From the NCBI GenBank assembly GCA_017609405.1, contig JAFCDZ010000002.1, positions 22,593-86,592 on the forward strand: a DNA stretch of 64,000 nucleotides. Direction: 5' to 3'. This document shows, in pieces, positions 30,895-36,823 of the stretch. Below the pieces are notes generated by a model, which was given only the letters and a program-made list of their open reading frames with translations, had not been told where the DNA came from and ran no database searches. The translations under genes and the position numbers were made by a program. The stretch's first letter is position 1. Each line of letters starts with the position of its first letter. The stretch is from Candidatus Pacearchaeota archaeon (GTDB lineage Archaea > Nanobdellota > Nanobdellia > Pacearchaeales > GW2011-AR1).

Positions 30895-31524
30895 ATGTCT
30901 TTTTATACTACAAAATATTTAAATAATTCGAGGATATCTAAACTTATGGAGCCCTTATTTTATTTTTTTGGAATTAGAAGAAAGGAAAAGATGTTTATAC
31001 TAAATGATCCAATAATAATTGATAACTCTCATTTATATGATTTAGATGTATATGCTTTAGGAGAATTATTTGAAGAAAAATCATTAAAATTGAAGGATTT
31101 GGTTGAAGAACTTGGTAAAGAGAGAGGAATTTTATTTGGGGTTGCAAAGAATTCTGAAAGAATAACAGAGTTTTTAAAATTTGGAAAATTTCTTTCTCCA
31201 GAGATTATAGAAGAGAATTTTAGTATCTATTTCCTAAAGGATGAAAAAAGTATATTGTTTAAGATTAATAAAATCTATCATAGTTGGAAAGAACTAAAAA
31301 AAGATATTTGGAAAATTTTAGAGCCATTAAATATTTTTTCAAAGGAAGAATTTAGAATATCTACAAAAGATTGGGAAGATTCTGAACATAATCCTGAAGC
31401 TTTCTCATTTGAAACTAAAAAGTTCAAACTGTGCATTGGAAAGTTTTATTACTCCTTCATATACATCAAACCTAAAAATTATAATCAATTAAAAAATAAA
31501 ATAAAAGGATTGTATAAAAAATAG
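30895..31524 (+). CDS. hypothetical protein
   Basis: 209-aa ORF with an uncertain start (alternative ATG at 30946). No family recognised. Confidence 0.45.
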   Translation: MSFYTTKYLNNSRISKLMEPLFYFFGIRRKEKMFILNDPIIIDNSHLYDLDVYALGELFEEKSLKLKDLVEELGKERGILFGVAKNSERITEFLKFGKFLSPEIIEENFSIYFLKDEKSILFKINKIYHSWKELKKDIWKILEPLNIFSKEEFRISTKDWEDSEHNPEAFSFETKKFKLCIGKFYYSFIYIKPKNYNQLKNKIKGLYKK

Positions 31525-31638
31525 TTTTAAAATTTATCTAAGCCTTCTCTTTGTCTATTTTATGAAACTCGACGCAACTAAATATATAAAACCCCCCCTA
31601 TTATACTAACTGTTGATTTCTGAGAGTAAAAAGAAATA

Positions 31639-31647
31639 TTTATAAAA
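31639..31647 (+). promoter_or_regulatory. TATA-box-like element upstream of the small ORF at 31668
   Basis: tttataaaa preceded by a purine-rich stretch (BRE-like). It is centred about 25 nt upstream of ATG 31668, which fits a leaderless or short-leader archaeal transcript. Confidence 0.35.
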
Positions 31648-31667
31648 AAGATAGACCATATACTTAA

Positions 31668-31766
31668 ATGGAAACAAATGAAAAATATGAAGAACCAGAA
31701 ATCGCAAAGTTCCCTGTATCAGGAGAAGAAGGGAAAATTGCAGAATTTTGGATTGAATCAGATTAA
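31668..31766 (+). CDS. candidate 32-aa precursor peptide METNEKYEEPEIAKFPVSGEEGKIAEFWIESD
   Basis: Not in the ORF track because it is under 60 aa. It lies directly upstream of the PqqD-like and rSAM/SPASM genes. The codon-position signal favours this frame: 26/32 codons end in A/T and 15/32 start with G, whereas in the overlapping track frame only 14/30 codons end in A/T. Confidence 0.45.
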   Translation: METNEKYEEPEIAKFPVSGEEGKIAEFWIESD

Positions 31767-31992
31767 AAGGCCAAAGAGGTTCTTTTTTAGAAAAGAAGAA
31801 CAGGGTTACATAGTTTTTGATAGCTTGAGTTCTCAGATTTTTTTTACAAATAAGACCGCAAAAGAAATAATATCTTTCTTTGATTCTGGATTAACAAAAA
31901 AAGAGATCATTGACAGTATTTCTAAAAAATATAAAATTTCTTCACAGAAAGCTTCAAAAGGGATAAATAAAATTTTAAGGGAAATAGAATGA
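31753..31992 (+). CDS. PqqD-family peptide-binding protein (RiPP recognition element-like)
   Basis: KRFFFRKEEQGYIVFDSLSSQIFFTNKTAKEIISFFDSGLTKKEIIDSISKKY matches the PqqD beta-strand plus winged-helix pattern. The start is uncertain: TTG 31753 is preferred here, the track start is ATG 31678. The gene overlaps the rSAM gene start by 4 nt. Confidence 0.65.
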   Translation: MNQIKRPKRFFFRKEEQGYIVFDSLSSQIFFTNKTAKEIISFFDSGLTKKEIIDSISKKYKISSQKASKGINKILREIE

Positions 31993-32999
31993 ATACTTTT
32001 TCTGCACCAATTTATATGGGGATTGATCTAACTGAACGATGCAATCTTAGATGCATTCATTGTCGCGTTTCAACATCTACAAAAAAGACTAACGAAATTT
32101 CACTTAAGAAATTAAGAGAATTAATAGATACTTTATCAAAAATGAAGGTTATCCAGATAATCTATTCTGGGGGAGAACCTTTTTTAAGGAAAGATATTTT
32201 TGAAATTTTATCTTACTCTGTAAAAAAAGGAATACCCGATCTAATTGTAGTTACAAATGGTCTATTACTGAATGACGAAAAGATATCTAAATTAAAGAAA
32301 ACGGGTATGAAGAAGATAACAATTAGTTTGGATGGTTTAGAAGAATCGCATGATATAATTAGGGGCAAGGGTACATTTAAAAGAACTTTGGATATAATTA
32401 AGAGGTTGGTAAAAGAAGGATTTGAAGTTAAAGTTACAATGACATTAAATAAACTAAACAAAAATGATGTTCTCCAATTATCTGTTTTATTAAATATGAT
32501 TGGTGTAAAAAGAATTAATGTTGGGAATTTAATGCCTTGTGGAAGAGGGAAAGACTTATGGGATCAATCGTTAGACTTTAAGGAGAAATATGAATTGTTC
32601 AATAAAATAAAAAAAGTTAATAATAAATATGGAGAGAATTTCATAAATTTTGAGTCTTCTTTTTTATCAGAACCGAGACTTTCTAAATCAGAACAAAAAA
32701 TTGCTTCCTTTTTAGGTTGTAGGGGAGGAAGAACTTATTGTGCGATTCTTGCTAATGGAGATGTTGTTGCCTGTAAAATGCTCCCCCATGTTGTTGCTGG
32801 GAATATTTACAAAACGAATTTTTCTAAGATTTGGAAAGATGATAAAAATTGGAAAATTTGGAGAGAGGGTAAATTACCCAAAAAATGCCGTCTTTGCAAA
32901 TATGGGGAGGCTTGTAGAGGGGGCTGTAAAGCTATTAGCTTTTACAAATATGGGAGATTTGATGTTCCAGATCCAAGATGTATCGGGCCCTTCACTTAA
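31989..32999 (+). CDS. radical SAM enzyme with a C-terminal SPASM domain
   Basis: CNLRCIHC (CxxxCxxC), GGEPFL, and a C-terminal auxiliary-cluster pattern GCRGG..C(x12)C ... CRLCKYGEACRGGC ... C. Confidence 0.85.
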   Translation: MNTFSAPIYMGIDLTERCNLRCIHCRVSTSTKKTNEISLKKLRELIDTLSKMKVIQIIYSGGEPFLRKDIFEILSYSVKKGIPDLIVVTNGLLLNDEKISKLKKTGMKKITISLDGLEESHDIIRGKGTFKRTLDIIKRLVKEGFEVKVTMTLNKLNKNDVLQLSVLLNMIGVKRINVGNLMPCGRGKDLWDQSLDFKEKYELFNKIKKVNNKYGENFINFESSFLSEPRLSKSEQKIASFLGCRGGRTYCAILANGDVVACKMLPHVVAGNIYKTNFSKIWKDDKNWKIWREGKLPKKCRLCKYGEACRGGCKAISFYKYGRFDVPDPRCIGPFT

Positions 33000-33855
33000 A
33001 CGGCTTCACAAAATTTTCATTAAAATATAAAGAGTAATACCTATGAAGACCTTGGCATTTTTCTCTCTTTTTACACTCCGAACATTTTTTTGGAAAATAT
33101 CGCCCTTCCAATCCGGTTAATATCTTTCCTTGTTTGATCAACCAAACATCCCAATTTACATTTTCAGCTCTTTTATCATTAATGATGCATAAGGGTATAT
33201 TTTCAAACAAGATTTTTTTATTATTACCAATTTTATTTATTGCTTTTTTTATTTTTCTTAACGAAACCAAATGCTTCTTGGAATAGTTTTTGTGTCCTTT
33301 AATGGGATAAAATCTCGGATAGGAAATTCTAATTTCCTCGATAAAAGGATATTTTTCTTCGAAGAAATTAATTGTTTTATACAGAGATCTATAATTATAT
33401 CTAGTAATCACCGTGTTTGTTGATATTTTAACCTTACTTCTATATTTTCTTAATAATTCCATATTTTTTAACAATTTCTCAAAATTTTTTGATTGTGTTA
33501 TTTTCTCATAAGAATTTTTATCATGCGAGTGAAATGATATTTTTAATTCATTTAACCCTACTTTAATAATCTTTCTAAGTAGTTTTTCATTTAAAAAAAT
33601 TAGGTTAGTCTCAATTAAAGTATACTTTTGATTTGCTTTTGCAAACTTTATAATCTCAGATATATCTTTCCTAAGTAAAACTTCCCCTCCTGAAAGAATC
33701 AATTTTCTGAAAGGTTTAGATAATTTTATGTCTTTTTTGATTTCATTTATGGTTGGATTTGGATGAGGGTGTTTTTTAACAGAACAAAAAACACAATTAT
33801 GGGGGCATTCAGTTGTAACGTGAATTTCTGCTTCTTTATTTATCATTTTCTTCAA
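32992..33855 (-). CDS. radical SAM enzyme (second, non-SPASM type)
   Basis: CPHNCVFC near the N-terminus, SGGEVLL, and a short C-terminal CSECKKREKC motif. 287 aa. Confidence 0.75.
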   Translation of the reverse strand: MKKMINKEAEIHVTTECPHNCVFCSVKKHPHPNPTINEIKKDIKLSKPFRKLILSGGEVLLRKDISEIIKFAKANQKYTLIETNLIFLNEKLLRKIIKVGLNELKISFHSHDKNSYEKITQSKNFEKLLKNMELLRKYRSKVKISTNTVITRYNYRSLYKTINFFEEKYPFIEEIRISYPRFYPIKGHKNYSKKHLVSLRKIKKAINKIGNNKKILFENIPLCIINDKRAENVNWDVWLIKQGKILTGLEGRYFPKKCSECKKREKCQGLHRYYSLYFNENFVKPFK

Positions 33856-34858
33856 ATATTCTTATATAACTCTCTACAGTGATTTTTTCAATTTCTTCTT
33901 TTGTGTGCATTTTTATAAATTTAATGATTTTATCTAAAGGTACTTTAAAATTTTCATGGTCTATTTTTAAAAACAATTCTTTTGGAATTTCTAACGGAAG
34001 ATTAAGTTCTTTTTTTAAAGAATCAAAGGAATGAAATAATCCCCGACTATATACCTTAAACCAATCTTTTCTGGAAAAATTCTTTGTTTTTAAGATAGTT
34101 TCATTTACTTTTTTTTCAATGATCTTATAGACTTTTTTCAATTCAATGTCTTTGATTAAACGACCATCAATTTCAACGTAAGAGGCTACTTTCTTAGGAG
34201 ATTGAAATAAATGATTAAAAAAATCTAAATCAATCTCTCCCCTAATCTCTTCAACGATTTTTATTTTTTTGAAAGGAAATTCTTCTGTTAAGTTAAGTGA
34301 AATAGGATTAAGATTAAAAAACTCTTTAATGAATATCCTCTTACTCCCTTTTTCATAAACCCCATGAAACTCATGCCCTAATCTCATCATTGTAGGGTAG
34401 AGTATCTCCAAATAAAACAATAACAATGCAGATAATTTGTTGCTTATTATTAGATTGTTCTCATTTGAGTTTAGTTTGTCAATTTCAAAAGAATATTTTT
34501 TTAGCCGATTATTTTCATCACAAAAAACATCTTCTCTATAATATCCTATACAGCTTATTAAATCCTTTGCAAGCTCTATTCTTTGATTAAACTTCAAAAC
34601 TTTTGCACTATGAAAGAGAGTAAAGTATTGTGCAATTTTCGAGGGATTTTCGAATAATCTTGCTATCTCTTCAATCGAGTAACCTTTGTCTTTTAATCTT
34701 TTAATTGAAGAATATAACTCTCTAATAAAAAAGCTTCCAACATAATATTCTGCTTCATTAGGGATGAATGGCCATAATGCACTCGCAGTGTCTCCCTTAT
34801 GCAACTTTGACAAATCTCTTCCAATTACTTTACACAACTTTTTAATAGATTTATTCAT
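33836..34858 (-). CDS. hypothetical protein, operon partner of the rSAM and PEP-swivel genes
   Basis: 340-aa ORF whose ends overlap both neighbours (translational coupling). No family recognised by eye. Confidence 0.5.
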   Translation of the reverse strand: MNKSIKKLCKVIGRDLSKLHKGDTASALWPFIPNEAEYYVGSFFIRELYSSIKRLKDKGYSIEEIARLFENPSKIAQYFTLFHSAKVLKFNQRIELAKDLISCIGYYREDVFCDENNRLKKYSFEIDKLNSNENNLIISNKLSALLLFYLEILYPTMMRLGHEFHGVYEKGSKRIFIKEFFNLNPISLNLTEEFPFKKIKIVEEIRGEIDLDFFNHLFQSPKKVASYVEIDGRLIKDIELKKVYKIIEKKVNETILKTKNFSRKDWFKVYSRGLFHSFDSLKKELNLPLEIPKELFLKIDHENFKVPLDKIIKFIKMHTKEEIEKITVESYIRIFEENDK

Positions 34859-35186
34859 TTTCTAAAATAGTTACTTTGTTGTTAGTAGCATCCACCTCAA
34901 CGAGCATCCCTTCTTTTAACTTTGATGAAATGCCTTCAACACCCAATATACAAGGTTTATTCATTTCTCTGCTGACAATAGCTAGATGACATAATGAACC
35001 CCCCCTCTCACTTATAATGGCAGATGCTTTTATAAATGCTAAGGAAAACAATGGAGAGTTATTTGTTGTTACAACTATATCCCCCTCTTTTACCCTTTCA
35101 ATATCTTCTACTGAATCCACTATTTTTATTTTTCCGATATATCTTCCTGGATTAGCTACAACCCCCCTAAATGATTTTAATTCCAT
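34851..35186 (-). CDS. stand-alone PEP-utilising-enzyme mobile (swivelling phosphohistidine) domain protein
   Basis: 111 aa. GVVANPGRYIGKIKIV..GDIVVTTNNSP......AIISERGGSLCHLAIVSREMNKPCILGV matches the PEP-utiliser mobile domain, including the phospho-acceptor His. Confidence 0.75.
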   Translation of the reverse strand: MELKSFRGVVANPGRYIGKIKIVDSVEDIERVKEGDIVVTTNNSPLFSLAFIKASAIISERGGSLCHLAIVSREMNKPCILGVEGISSKLKEGMLVEVDATNNKVTILENE

Positions 35187-36823
35187 TTTTCTTTAGCAAC
35201 CATTACTTCTATTAAAACAGGATGCTTTTCTTTAAGACTTTTTAATCCTTTATTAATTTGCTTTTTTATTTCACTTTTATTTGAAATCTTGTAATACCTT
35301 ATATTAAAACTTTCAGCTAATTTATCAAATGAGGGATTAGTAAACTCTGTCATAAATGATTTTCCGTACTTTTTTATCTGAGAATGGTATATTGGTCCAA
35401 GAATGCCGTTGTTAAGGACTATTGCCATTATTGGAATTTTATAATTAGATGCTGTCATTAATTCCATTGCAGTCATTTGAAATCCCCCATCCCCTTGGAT
35501 TGAAACTACGACTCTATCTTTATTTCCCATTTTACTTCCGATAGCCTCTCCTAGAGAACATCCTATTGGTGCAAAACCAGTACATACAATCTGCGTTCTC
35601 GGTTTGTAAATTTTGAAATATCTCTGAACCCATGCAATAGACTCTGTGCATACTATTGAATCTTTTGGTAATATTTTTCTTAATTCAGCAATAAAAGTTT
35701 GAGGTTTTAAAGGTGTAGAATTCGCTTTCATTTCAGGATAATTAAAATAACCTTTAGATCTATATTTCTTTATTAAACCAGAATAATCCTTCTTTTGTTT
35801 TTTAATTGTCAACTCTAATTTTGAAATAATCTCTGAAATATCTCCTTGAAGAAGATAATCTATCTTATAATTCTTAGTTATGTCCCTTGATTTTATATCT
35901 ATTCTAACAATTTTAGTGTTATGAAAATTAAAACTCCAATTATTGGTAGAAAATTGACTTAAACTAGAGCCAATGACAATTAAAAAATCCACACCAGATT
36001 TAATATACTCGTTTGCTGATTTTTGTCCTGTCAAACCAATTGTCCCAAGTGAAAGTTTATGGTCATCTGAAATTATACCCCTCCCTTTTAGAGTTGTTAA
36101 TACTGGAATTTTTGATTTATTAATAAATTTCAAGATAGCTTCTCGATGTTTAATAGCCCCTCCCCCAAGCAATATTGCCGGCTTTTTAGATTTTTGCAAT
36201 TCTAAAGAAATTTTTTTAATTTTTTCAATCGGAATCTCTCTTTTTAATCTAATCTTATTTTCTTTTTCAAATAATTCAAAAAGATTATCCTCAAAATCAA
36301 TTTCCTTTTGCATTACATCGGCGGGAATTTCTAAATATGCTGGACTAGGACGATGATCGTTTAAGGTAAAATAAACCTTCTTTAATATTTGGATAATCTT
36401 CTTTTCGTCTTCAATAACTTCAGCGTAACCGGTAATTTCCTTAAATATTTTTAATTGACTTATAGTTCTTCCAATCCCTGTTGACTCCTGAAAACTTGCC
36501 CTTCCTTTCAATGAACTCGAAACTTGGCCGGATAGAACTAATATTGGCTGAGAATCGTAATATGCTGCAGCTATACTTGTTACTAAATTTGTTGCGCCTG
36601 GACCGACACTCCCGAAACAGGAACACGGCAGTCCAGTAGACTTAGAATATCCACTAGCCATAAAGCCAGCACCCTCTTCATGTTTTGCTAAAATTAATTT
36701 TATCTTCTTACTTTTATTAATTTCATCTAAAAGACTCATGTTTGAACCCGGAACCCCAAAGCAATATTTTATTCCTAAAAATTTCATAAATTTGACAATA
36801 ATCTGATTAATTGTTTTTCTCAT
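35177..36823 (-). CDS. thiamine-diphosphate-dependent enzyme, acetolactate synthase large-subunit-like
   Basis: N-terminal Pyr domain (GVPGS..HEEGAGFMA..GPGATN), a central domain, and the C-terminal ThDP motif GDGGFQM...NNG. 548 aa. Confidence 0.8.
   Translation of the reverse strand: MRKTINQIIVKFMKFLGIKYCFGVPGSNMSLLDEINKSKKIKLILAKHEEGAGFMASGYSKSTGLPCSCFGSVGPGATNLVTSIAAAYYDSQPILVLSGQVSSSLKGRASFQESTGIGRTISQLKIFKEITGYAEVIEDEKKIIQILKKVYFTLNDHRPSPAYLEIPADVMQKEIDFEDNLFELFEKENKIRLKREIPIEKIKKISLELQKSKKPAILLGGGAIKHREAILKFINKSKIPVLTTLKGRGIISDDHKLSLGTIGLTGQKSANEYIKSGVDFLIVIGSSLSQFSTNNWSFNFHNTKIVRIDIKSRDITKNYKIDYLLQGDISEIISKLELTIKKQKKDYSGLIKKYRSKGYFNYPEMKANSTPLKPQTFIAELRKILPKDSIVCTESIAWVQRYFKIYKPRTQIVCTGFAPIGCSLGEAIGSKMGNKDRVVVSIQGDGGFQMTAMELMTASNYKIPIMAIVLNNGILGPIYHSQIKKYGKSFMTEFTNPSFDKLAESFNIRYYKISNKSEIKKQINKGLKSLKEKHPVLIEVMVAKEKWN

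Follow-up and report, generated by a model that had tools for sequence, protein, structure and literature searches.

A conserved small-peptide gene ahead of PqqD-like and radical SAM/SPASM genes in a DPANN archaeon, the likely precursor of a modified peptide

Described precursor peptide systems and the archaeal cassette

In lasso systems with a discrete B1 protein (e.g., TbiA-TbiB1 and FusA/TfuA-B1), the RiPP recognition element (RRE) is a small stand-alone winged-helix protein of the PqqD family, and such discrete lasso-type RREs bind a [Y/W]xxPx[L/V/I/F/A] motif in the leader of the precursor (PMC13381572; PMC6784204). The PQQ system (pqqA-pqqD-pqqE) has a tiny, well-conserved precursor beside a discrete PqqD and a radical SAM/SPASM enzyme, and the mycofactocin system (mftA-mftB-mftC) shows the gene order peptide, PqqD-like RRE, radical SAM/SPASM enzyme. 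The Trp-cross-linking radical SAM RiPPs (streptide StrA/B/C, tryglysin WgkA/B/C, darobactin, WprB and the triceptides) combine a short precursor that has an invariant core Trp with a radical SAM/SPASM maturase and a separate PqqD-like chaperone; the known systems of this kind come from bacteria, frequently with a link to quorum sensing. To our knowledge, radical SAM-modified ribosomal peptides have hardly been characterised in archaea.

The window (i.e., the whole 64,000-nt stretch of a Candidatus Pacearchaeota contig analysed here) contains a putative cassette of three genes, encoding a precursor peptide, a PqqD-family RRE and a radical SAM/SPASM enzyme, which meets a convergent operon at its 3' end. 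The features of the region are:

31639..31647, + strand: TATA-like box (tttataaaa), 29 nt before ATG 31668
31668..31766, + strand: precursor peptide gene, 32 aa plus TAA (METNEKYEEPEIAKFPVSGEEGKIAEFWIESD), drawn from the coding model, conservation, dN/dS and profile search
31686..31703, + strand: leader motif Y7-E-E-P10-E-I12 (consensus YxxPx[I/V/A]), proposed RRE-binding element, Y7 and P10 invariant
31721..31726, + strand: SD-like AGGAGA inside the peptide ORF (codons S-G-E), 16-17 nt before TTG 31738
31734..31757, + strand: proposed core K23-I-A-E26-F-W28-I-E30, with E26, W28 and E30 invariant in all family members
31753..31992, + strand: PqqD-like RRE gene, re-drawn to start at TTG 31753 (79 aa) or TTG 31738 (84 aa), not at ATG 31678
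31989..32999, + strand: radical SAM/SPASM enzyme of 336 aa, presumed maturase (Pfam Radical_SAM and SPASM), overlapping the PqqD stop by 4 nt
32992..36823, - strand: convergent operon of a second radical SAM protein (287 aa), a 340-aa protein, a PEP-utiliser swivel domain (111 aa) and a ThDP enzyme (548 aa)

The cassette shares with the lasso systems the small stand-alone PqqD-family protein, for whose confidently modelled part the best Foldseek matches were the lasso B1 RREs TbiB1 5v1u and 6jx3, both crystallised with leader (approximately 70 aligned columns), followed by the CteB RRE and PqqD (5sxy). A PDB sequence search with the short form of the protein gave no match, and only the fold search succeeded. 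The NCBIfam model lasso_PqqD_Strm also matches the cassette RRE (E = 1e-5), and the YxxPx[I/V/A] motif, which is invariant in the peptide family, agrees with the published lasso leader motif. The cassette differs from the lasso systems, however, in its radical SAM/SPASM partner and archaeal host, and the peptide has neither a Thr at the penultimate leader position nor an obvious macrolactam acceptor spacing. As the conserved block, compared over 9 loci, contains no Asn-synthetase-like cyclase (C) and no transglutaminase-like B2 protease, we did not assign the cassette to the lasso systems.

Likewise, the PQQ system is matched in general layout, and its PqqD is matched both by Pfam (PF05402; E = 4.6e-4, 20.9 bits, under the gathering score of 23.4) and by fold. 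The radical SAM enzyme, however, scores only 109 bits against the PqqE cut-off of 381, no E-x-x-x-Y pair is present in the peptide alignment (A3), and the cluster lacks pqqB, pqqC and pqqF; membership in the PQQ system thus fails on the PqqE score, the Glu-x3-Tyr pair and pqqB/pqqC. Mycofactocin is the system with the same gene order, and MftC is the best NCBIfam match of the radical SAM enzyme. This match (191 bits) stays under the cut-off of 265 and the peptide does not end in Val-Tyr, which together set the cassette apart from mycofactocin; MftD, MftE and MftF are also absent. Streptide and tryglysin were excluded on similar grounds, as WgkC, which is the best NCBIfam match of the cassette RRE, reaches 33.7 bits (cut-off 110), WgkB reaches 157 bits on the radical SAM enzyme (cut-off 650), and the Lys-Trp pair is not conserved, Lys23 not being invariant in the peptide family. 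Aromatic-X-X is the pattern of three-residue cyclophanes, which W-x-E fits; W28-x-E30 is invariant but present in a single copy in the peptide.

The SPASM domain of the radical SAM enzyme is complete (Pfam), and the solved structures nearest to it by sequence are those of SkfB, CteB and PqqE. As the enzyme falls under the cut-off of every curated family that it matches (AhbD, NirJ2 and WgkB in addition to MftC), its chemistry can not be read from homology. Judged by its sequences, the system would belong to the RRE-plus-radical-SAM peptide maturation systems as a member not described before, and the combination of a lasso-type YxxP leader with a radical SAM enzyme suggests that the leader/RRE code may not be confined to lasso and LPP peptides and may be used in archaea as well. 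As the peptide family has clear leader and core parts, this uncharacterised radical SAM system is directly testable.

The 32-codon gene and its peptide family

In the frame starting at ATG 31668, 26 of 32 codons end in A/T and 15 of 32 start with G, while in the overlapping frame that starts at ATG 31678 (hereafter the track frame, which belongs to a 104-aa ORF) the corresponding numbers are 14 of 30 and 3 of 30. The first-pass annotation had based its preference for the small ORF on three of these counts (26/32, 15/32 and 14/30), each of which was reproduced exactly. It had also reported that the track frame regains its A/T third-position bias after the overlap, and past position 31768 we found that 56 of 74 codons in this frame end in A/T and 15 of 74 start with G. 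For comparison, the 40 long ORFs of the window have an A/T fraction at the third position of 0.80 and a G fraction at the first position of 0.27 when read in frame, as compared to 0.62-0.70 and 0.12-0.13, respectively, when read off frame. Given the off-frame composition, the G-starting codons of the peptide frame would hardly be expected by chance (P = 5e-6; binomial tail), nor would the few A/T-ending codons of the track frame be expected if it were the true coding frame (P = 5e-5; binomial tail).

A frame-specific codon model, which had been proposed as a check, took its codon tables from 538 long ORFs across the entire 740-kb assembly and favoured the peptide frame over the track frame by 25.9 bits across the same 31 codons; true in-frame segments of 31 codons score 17.3 +/- 6.5 bits. 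Against background, the track frame scored approximately 0 bits within the overlap and +28 bits beyond it. Among gene segments of this genome, moreover, 7-16% have a +1 frame that runs through 20-30 codons without a stop just by chance, so that the existence of the long track ORF is unremarkable. Neither Pfam nor NCBIfam contained a match for the peptide.

For comparison across related loci, we used the contigs of 8 database homologues of the PqqD-like ORF, to which a motif scan added the "Candidatus Woesearchaeota archaeon" MAG contig L033 and L037. A search with the radical SAM enzyme gave 17 orthologue clusters at 45-83% identity, with the next match down at 36%, and four orthologues from among the most divergent ones were added to the comparison. 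Each of the 15 related loci (radical SAM enzymes 45-83% identical) keeps the peptide frame open and conserved, as an ORF of 28-39 codons directly 5' of, and co-directional with, the PqqD gene. The locus thus shows what is expected of a generic RRE-dependent RiPP precursor, i.e., a conserved short ORF adjoining RRE and enzyme genes.

Among the nine closest loci, the mean identity was 0.90 for the peptide as compared to 0.62 for the PqqD domain, and the variable sites were distributed over peptide codon positions 1, 2 and 3 as 8, 4 and 18 (P = 0.0055; chi-square test). As the third position of the peptide codons is the second position of the track frame, the commonest changes strike the latter at position 2. 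Over ten loci, the peptide frame had a dN/dS (Nei-Gojobori) of 0.075 as compared to 0.56 in the track frame, so that the alignment of orthologues suggested by the first-pass annotation identifies the peptide frame as the one conserved at the amino acid level. The reading frame is kept even where the peptide identity is only approximately 60% and the DNA differs. The claim that the upstream region encodes a short peptide is therefore borne out by the coding model, the 15 open frames and dN/dS alike. By these sequence measures, the 32-codon ORF at 31668-31766 is a genuine and strongly conserved small-peptide gene.

The alignment of the family (A3) has ten invariant residues, i.e., M1, Y7, E8, P10, P16, G19, K23, E26, W28 and E30, with a leader consensus of YxxPx[I/V/A] and a core consensus of ...[I/V]-[A/S]-E-[F/M]-W-x-E. 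The C-termini of the family read ES(D), EHD, EQN, ENG or ESA. Outside this alignment, P0073, which lies on a 510-bp contig, has Glu in place of Lys23 and keeps EFWxE; a streptide-like Lys23-Trp28 cross-link was thus dropped as a family-wide feature. We propose that YxxPx[I/V/A] is the element bound by the neighbouring RRE, and we infer that E26-W28-E30 in the core is likely the site of radical SAM modification. An AlphaFold2 (AF2) model was made from L033, where the peptide, its stop codon and the RRE lie naturally in frame, with the TAA read as Gly to give an artificial read-through in a single chain. In this fusion, the leader was predicted with a pLDDT of approximately 80 and formed a beta strand (V11-L14) just past the motif, and the core was flexible (pLDDT approximately 63). 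When 1.84 billion representative proteins were searched with a profile, only four clusters of such peptides (31-37 aa) came up, P0073 being one of them, and none of those looked up was named by any source; one further hit, in a protein of 1317 aa, was a spurious match.

A translated ORF at this place could also be just a regulatory or coupling uORF for the PqqD-like and radical SAM genes, with the true substrate either encoded elsewhere or not a peptide at all. The start of the PqqD-like gene within or beside the end of the small ORF would fit translational coupling, and the best family matches of the radical SAM enzyme include the non-peptide enzymes AhbD and NirJ2. We nevertheless consider this improbable, since coupling needs neither 90% amino acid identity nor ten invariant residues nor a dN/dS as low as the one observed. 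Moreover, the ORF carries the lasso-RRE motif beside a protein with the fold of such RREs, the presence of an RRE implies that the substrate is a peptide, and there is neither a paralogue of the peptide elsewhere in its own genome nor another intergenic space or small conserved ORF in the cluster.

Translation starts and the PqqD-like gene

The positions of TATA-like hexamers and SD-like motifs were determined ahead of 641 long ORFs of the genome. TATA-like hexamers peak sharply at -30..-27 from the ATG (approximately 400 of the 641 ORFs), which indicates that most genes of this genome are leaderless, and for the remaining genes SD-like motifs peak at -16..-9. With the help of these two peaks, start codons could be re-called throughout the assembly. 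The TATA-like box at 31639-31647, which the first-pass annotation had placed upstream of ATG 31668, is present and has the spacing of the leaderless genes, as it lies at -29 from ATG 31668 and at -39 from ATG 31678. Nine relatives have an equivalent box at -28/-27, and in L041 a GGAGG is found 6 nt before the peptide ATG instead of a TATA box. Both the TATA spacing and the GGAGG of L041 point to translation of the small ORF, the former implying a leaderless transcript that would begin at or near the peptide ATG.

For the PqqD-like gene, the first-pass annotation had put the probable start at "TTG 31753 or nearby" instead of ATG 31678. A start past ATG 31678 holds up, and the choice of codon is to be refined, as TTG 31738 is an equally good candidate with AGGAGA upstream of it; most likely, judging from the loci compared, the gene starts at one of these two TTG codons. 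TTG 31753 shares the frame of the PqqD ORF, no ATG occurs in the window near the start of the fold, and all ten loci with overlapping frames retain this TTG, W-[I/V]-E being always encoded there by TGG-RTT-GAA. Among the overlapping loci, the peptide occurs in two length variants that are exactly 3 nt apart, so that the TTG codons stay in frame with RFFF. No SD-like site precedes TTG 31753. For TTG 31738, GGTGA or GGAGA is found at the place equivalent to the SD-like site in eight relatives, and this TTG is lost together with its SD-like site in L021, which has an ATG further down and keeps the equivalent of TTG 31753.

Six relatives (L033, L040, L041, L042, L043 and L021) have a PqqD ATG 1-2 codons before the RFFFRKE strand. 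L033 has ATC at the position of TTG 31753 and uses its own ATG, which follows 3 nt after the peptide TAA (MTRYFIRKEKKGF...; MTRYFIRKE...), and in the other five the ATG stands before a [RN][FLY][FI][FI]R strand, 3-25 nt past the peptide stop.

Family models match the 104-aa ORF from residues 29-44 onwards. AF2, run with 15 sequences, gave pLDDT values of 51-57 for residues 1-30 and of 93-98 for residues 31-104, with three strands (35-40, 43-48 and 53-57) followed by three helices (59-69, 74-85 and 89-103). This beta3-alpha3 arrangement is that of the PqqD/RRE winged-helix fold (approximately 70-85 residues, three strands and three helices). The fold had been claimed to begin after the overlap, and both the family models and AF2 place its beginning at residues 31-35 of the ORF.

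It is very improbable, in our view, that the sequence is dual coding, i.e., that the 32-aa peptide and a 104-aa PqqD with a functional MKNMKNQ... extension are both made. The ten closest loci do have an ATG and no stop in the extension frame, with 74% identity at the protein level, and gene callers picked the extended form in 7 of 9 database entries for PqqD homologues. Such conservation of the extension frame is, however, what the constraint on the peptide itself would give, and the callers also stretched PqqD in an arbitrary manner to lengths of 127 and 137 aa. Five loci (L033, L040, L041, L042 and L043) lack the extension, and in L033 its frame is closed by a stop and has no ATG. The pattern that the first-pass annotation had named as speaking against its own reading, i.e., relatives that conserve the extension while breaking the METNEKYEEPE... 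frame, was thus found in reverse, with the peptide frame open in 15 of 15 loci and the extension absent or closed in five. Dual coding is further opposed by the clustering of substitutions on the second codon position of the extension, its higher dN/dS, its coding score near 0 bits and the low pLDDT of residues 1-30, as well as by the position of ATG 31678, which lies off the leaderless peak and lacks an SD. Overall, the PqqD-like gene has been drawn with a long N-terminus that is an artefact of annotation. Two gene models are corrected here (one gene was missing and one start was over-extended), and the same errors recur in public databases.

As an explanation of the conservation, a non-coding element (promoter, 5' UTR structure or small RNA) has negligible probability; the region does lie just past a promoter and ahead of the first annotated gene, but its third-position substitutions and 3-nt indels fit a coding frame that persists at approximately 60% peptide identity despite different DNA, its start codon stands at leaderless distance, and a Rfam scan of 31400-32100 found nothing significant.

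Proposed maturation, neighbouring genes and distribution

We consider it very probable that the peptide is a real gene and the precursor of the cassette, that it is the first cistron behind the TATA box at 31639 and that the PqqD-like gene starts at TTG 31753 or TTG 31738. The peptide would most likely be the precursor of an undescribed modified peptide whose maturation depends on an RRE and a radical SAM/SPASM enzyme. For leader binding, modification site, chemistry and biological role we propose the following model. Transcription from the TATA box at 31639-31647 would give a leaderless mRNA with the 32-codon ORF as its first cistron, and translation of this ORF would supply the substrate peptide of the three-gene cassette. 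The overlap of the PqqD-like gene with the end of the peptide gene, only 14-29 nt, would allow translational coupling. The lasso-type leader motif, located in the N-terminal half of the peptide, would dock as a further beta strand onto the small winged-helix RRE, and the RRE would hand the C-terminal core to the radical SAM enzyme, which would most likely install a C-C or C-O cross-link involving Trp28. Further tailoring by the convergent operon, with its second radical SAM protein, split phosphotransfer module and ThDP enzyme, is possible.

The convergent operon occurs in the same gene order in nine loci (L021, L023, L025, L027, L029, L030, L033, L037 and L042); its PEP-utiliser swivel domain is free-standing and its ThDP enzyme is ALS-like. 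The left flank of the cassette, on the other hand, differs from locus to locus. Neither Pfam nor NCBIfam gave a match for an ORF of 209 aa (30895-31524) that lies just 5' of the cassette; this ORF was ruled out as a member of the cluster, since it is not syntenic and the left flanks of the relatives all differ. The 3' ends of the two convergent radical SAM genes share 8 nt (32992-32999), which leaves no room for terminators between the operons. The genome encodes two more radical SAM/SPASM-like proteins (G000:C12:40309-41310 and G000:C3:5511-6275), which are 29-30% identical to the cassette enzyme.

It is tempting to speculate that the cassette makes a peptide-derived cofactor or signal, comparable to PQQ or mycofactocin, rather than an antibiotic-type RiPP; a new Trp cross-link in E-[F/M]-W-x-E might then be followed by processing through the second radical SAM protein, a split His-phosphotransfer module and the ThDP enzyme. 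This reading is favoured by the better conservation of the peptide than of the enzymes (0.90 vs 0.62-0.8 identity) and by the lack of any transporter, protease or immunity gene in the conserved block. It is disfavoured by the rarity of the peptide motif, which was present in just one of the 401 genomes sampled from the phylum and so fits an accessory trait better, and we regard it as doubtful. The organism, an ultra-small archaeon that depends on a host, has a 0.74-Mb DPANN genome that keeps few dispensable genes, which raises the question of a role of the peptide in a symbiotic lifestyle.

The peptide family is rare, with approximately 15 loci found, and belongs to Woesearchaeota-type archaea. 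Among approximately 185,000 species genomes, the motif was present in 2, and a motif scan of viral contigs found nothing. One of these two occurrences is a 5.7-kb archaeal contig (L025/L032; CAZBZG010000295.1, 5738 bp) in a 4.6-Mb MAG labelled uncultured Planctomycetaceae. This contig encodes an archaeal proteasome alpha subunit and SBDS in addition to the cassette, and it is probably mis-binned. Two other matches to EEGKIAEFW were rejected as chance occurrences in unrelated sequences, i.e., one in a GC-rich ORF of approximately 160 residues (L034, 1497-1523) and one in a protein of more than 1000 aa (L039, 3878-3904).

Two loci from genomes of the same family and the same order, respectively, whose radical SAM enzymes are 34-36% identical to that of the cassette (L002 and L003), were set aside as a different radical SAM/PqqD system with another gene order and without such a peptide. 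At these loci (L002, G006:C26, 1209-3898; L003, G060:C3, 305-2788), a protein of 349-367 aa is followed by a radical SAM/SPASM enzyme of 374 aa and then, downstream, by a PqqD-like protein of 89 aa. A Cys-rich ORF of 76 aa near the first of them (…PCERPCVCVCVCKHG…) could be the precursor of the L002 cassette.
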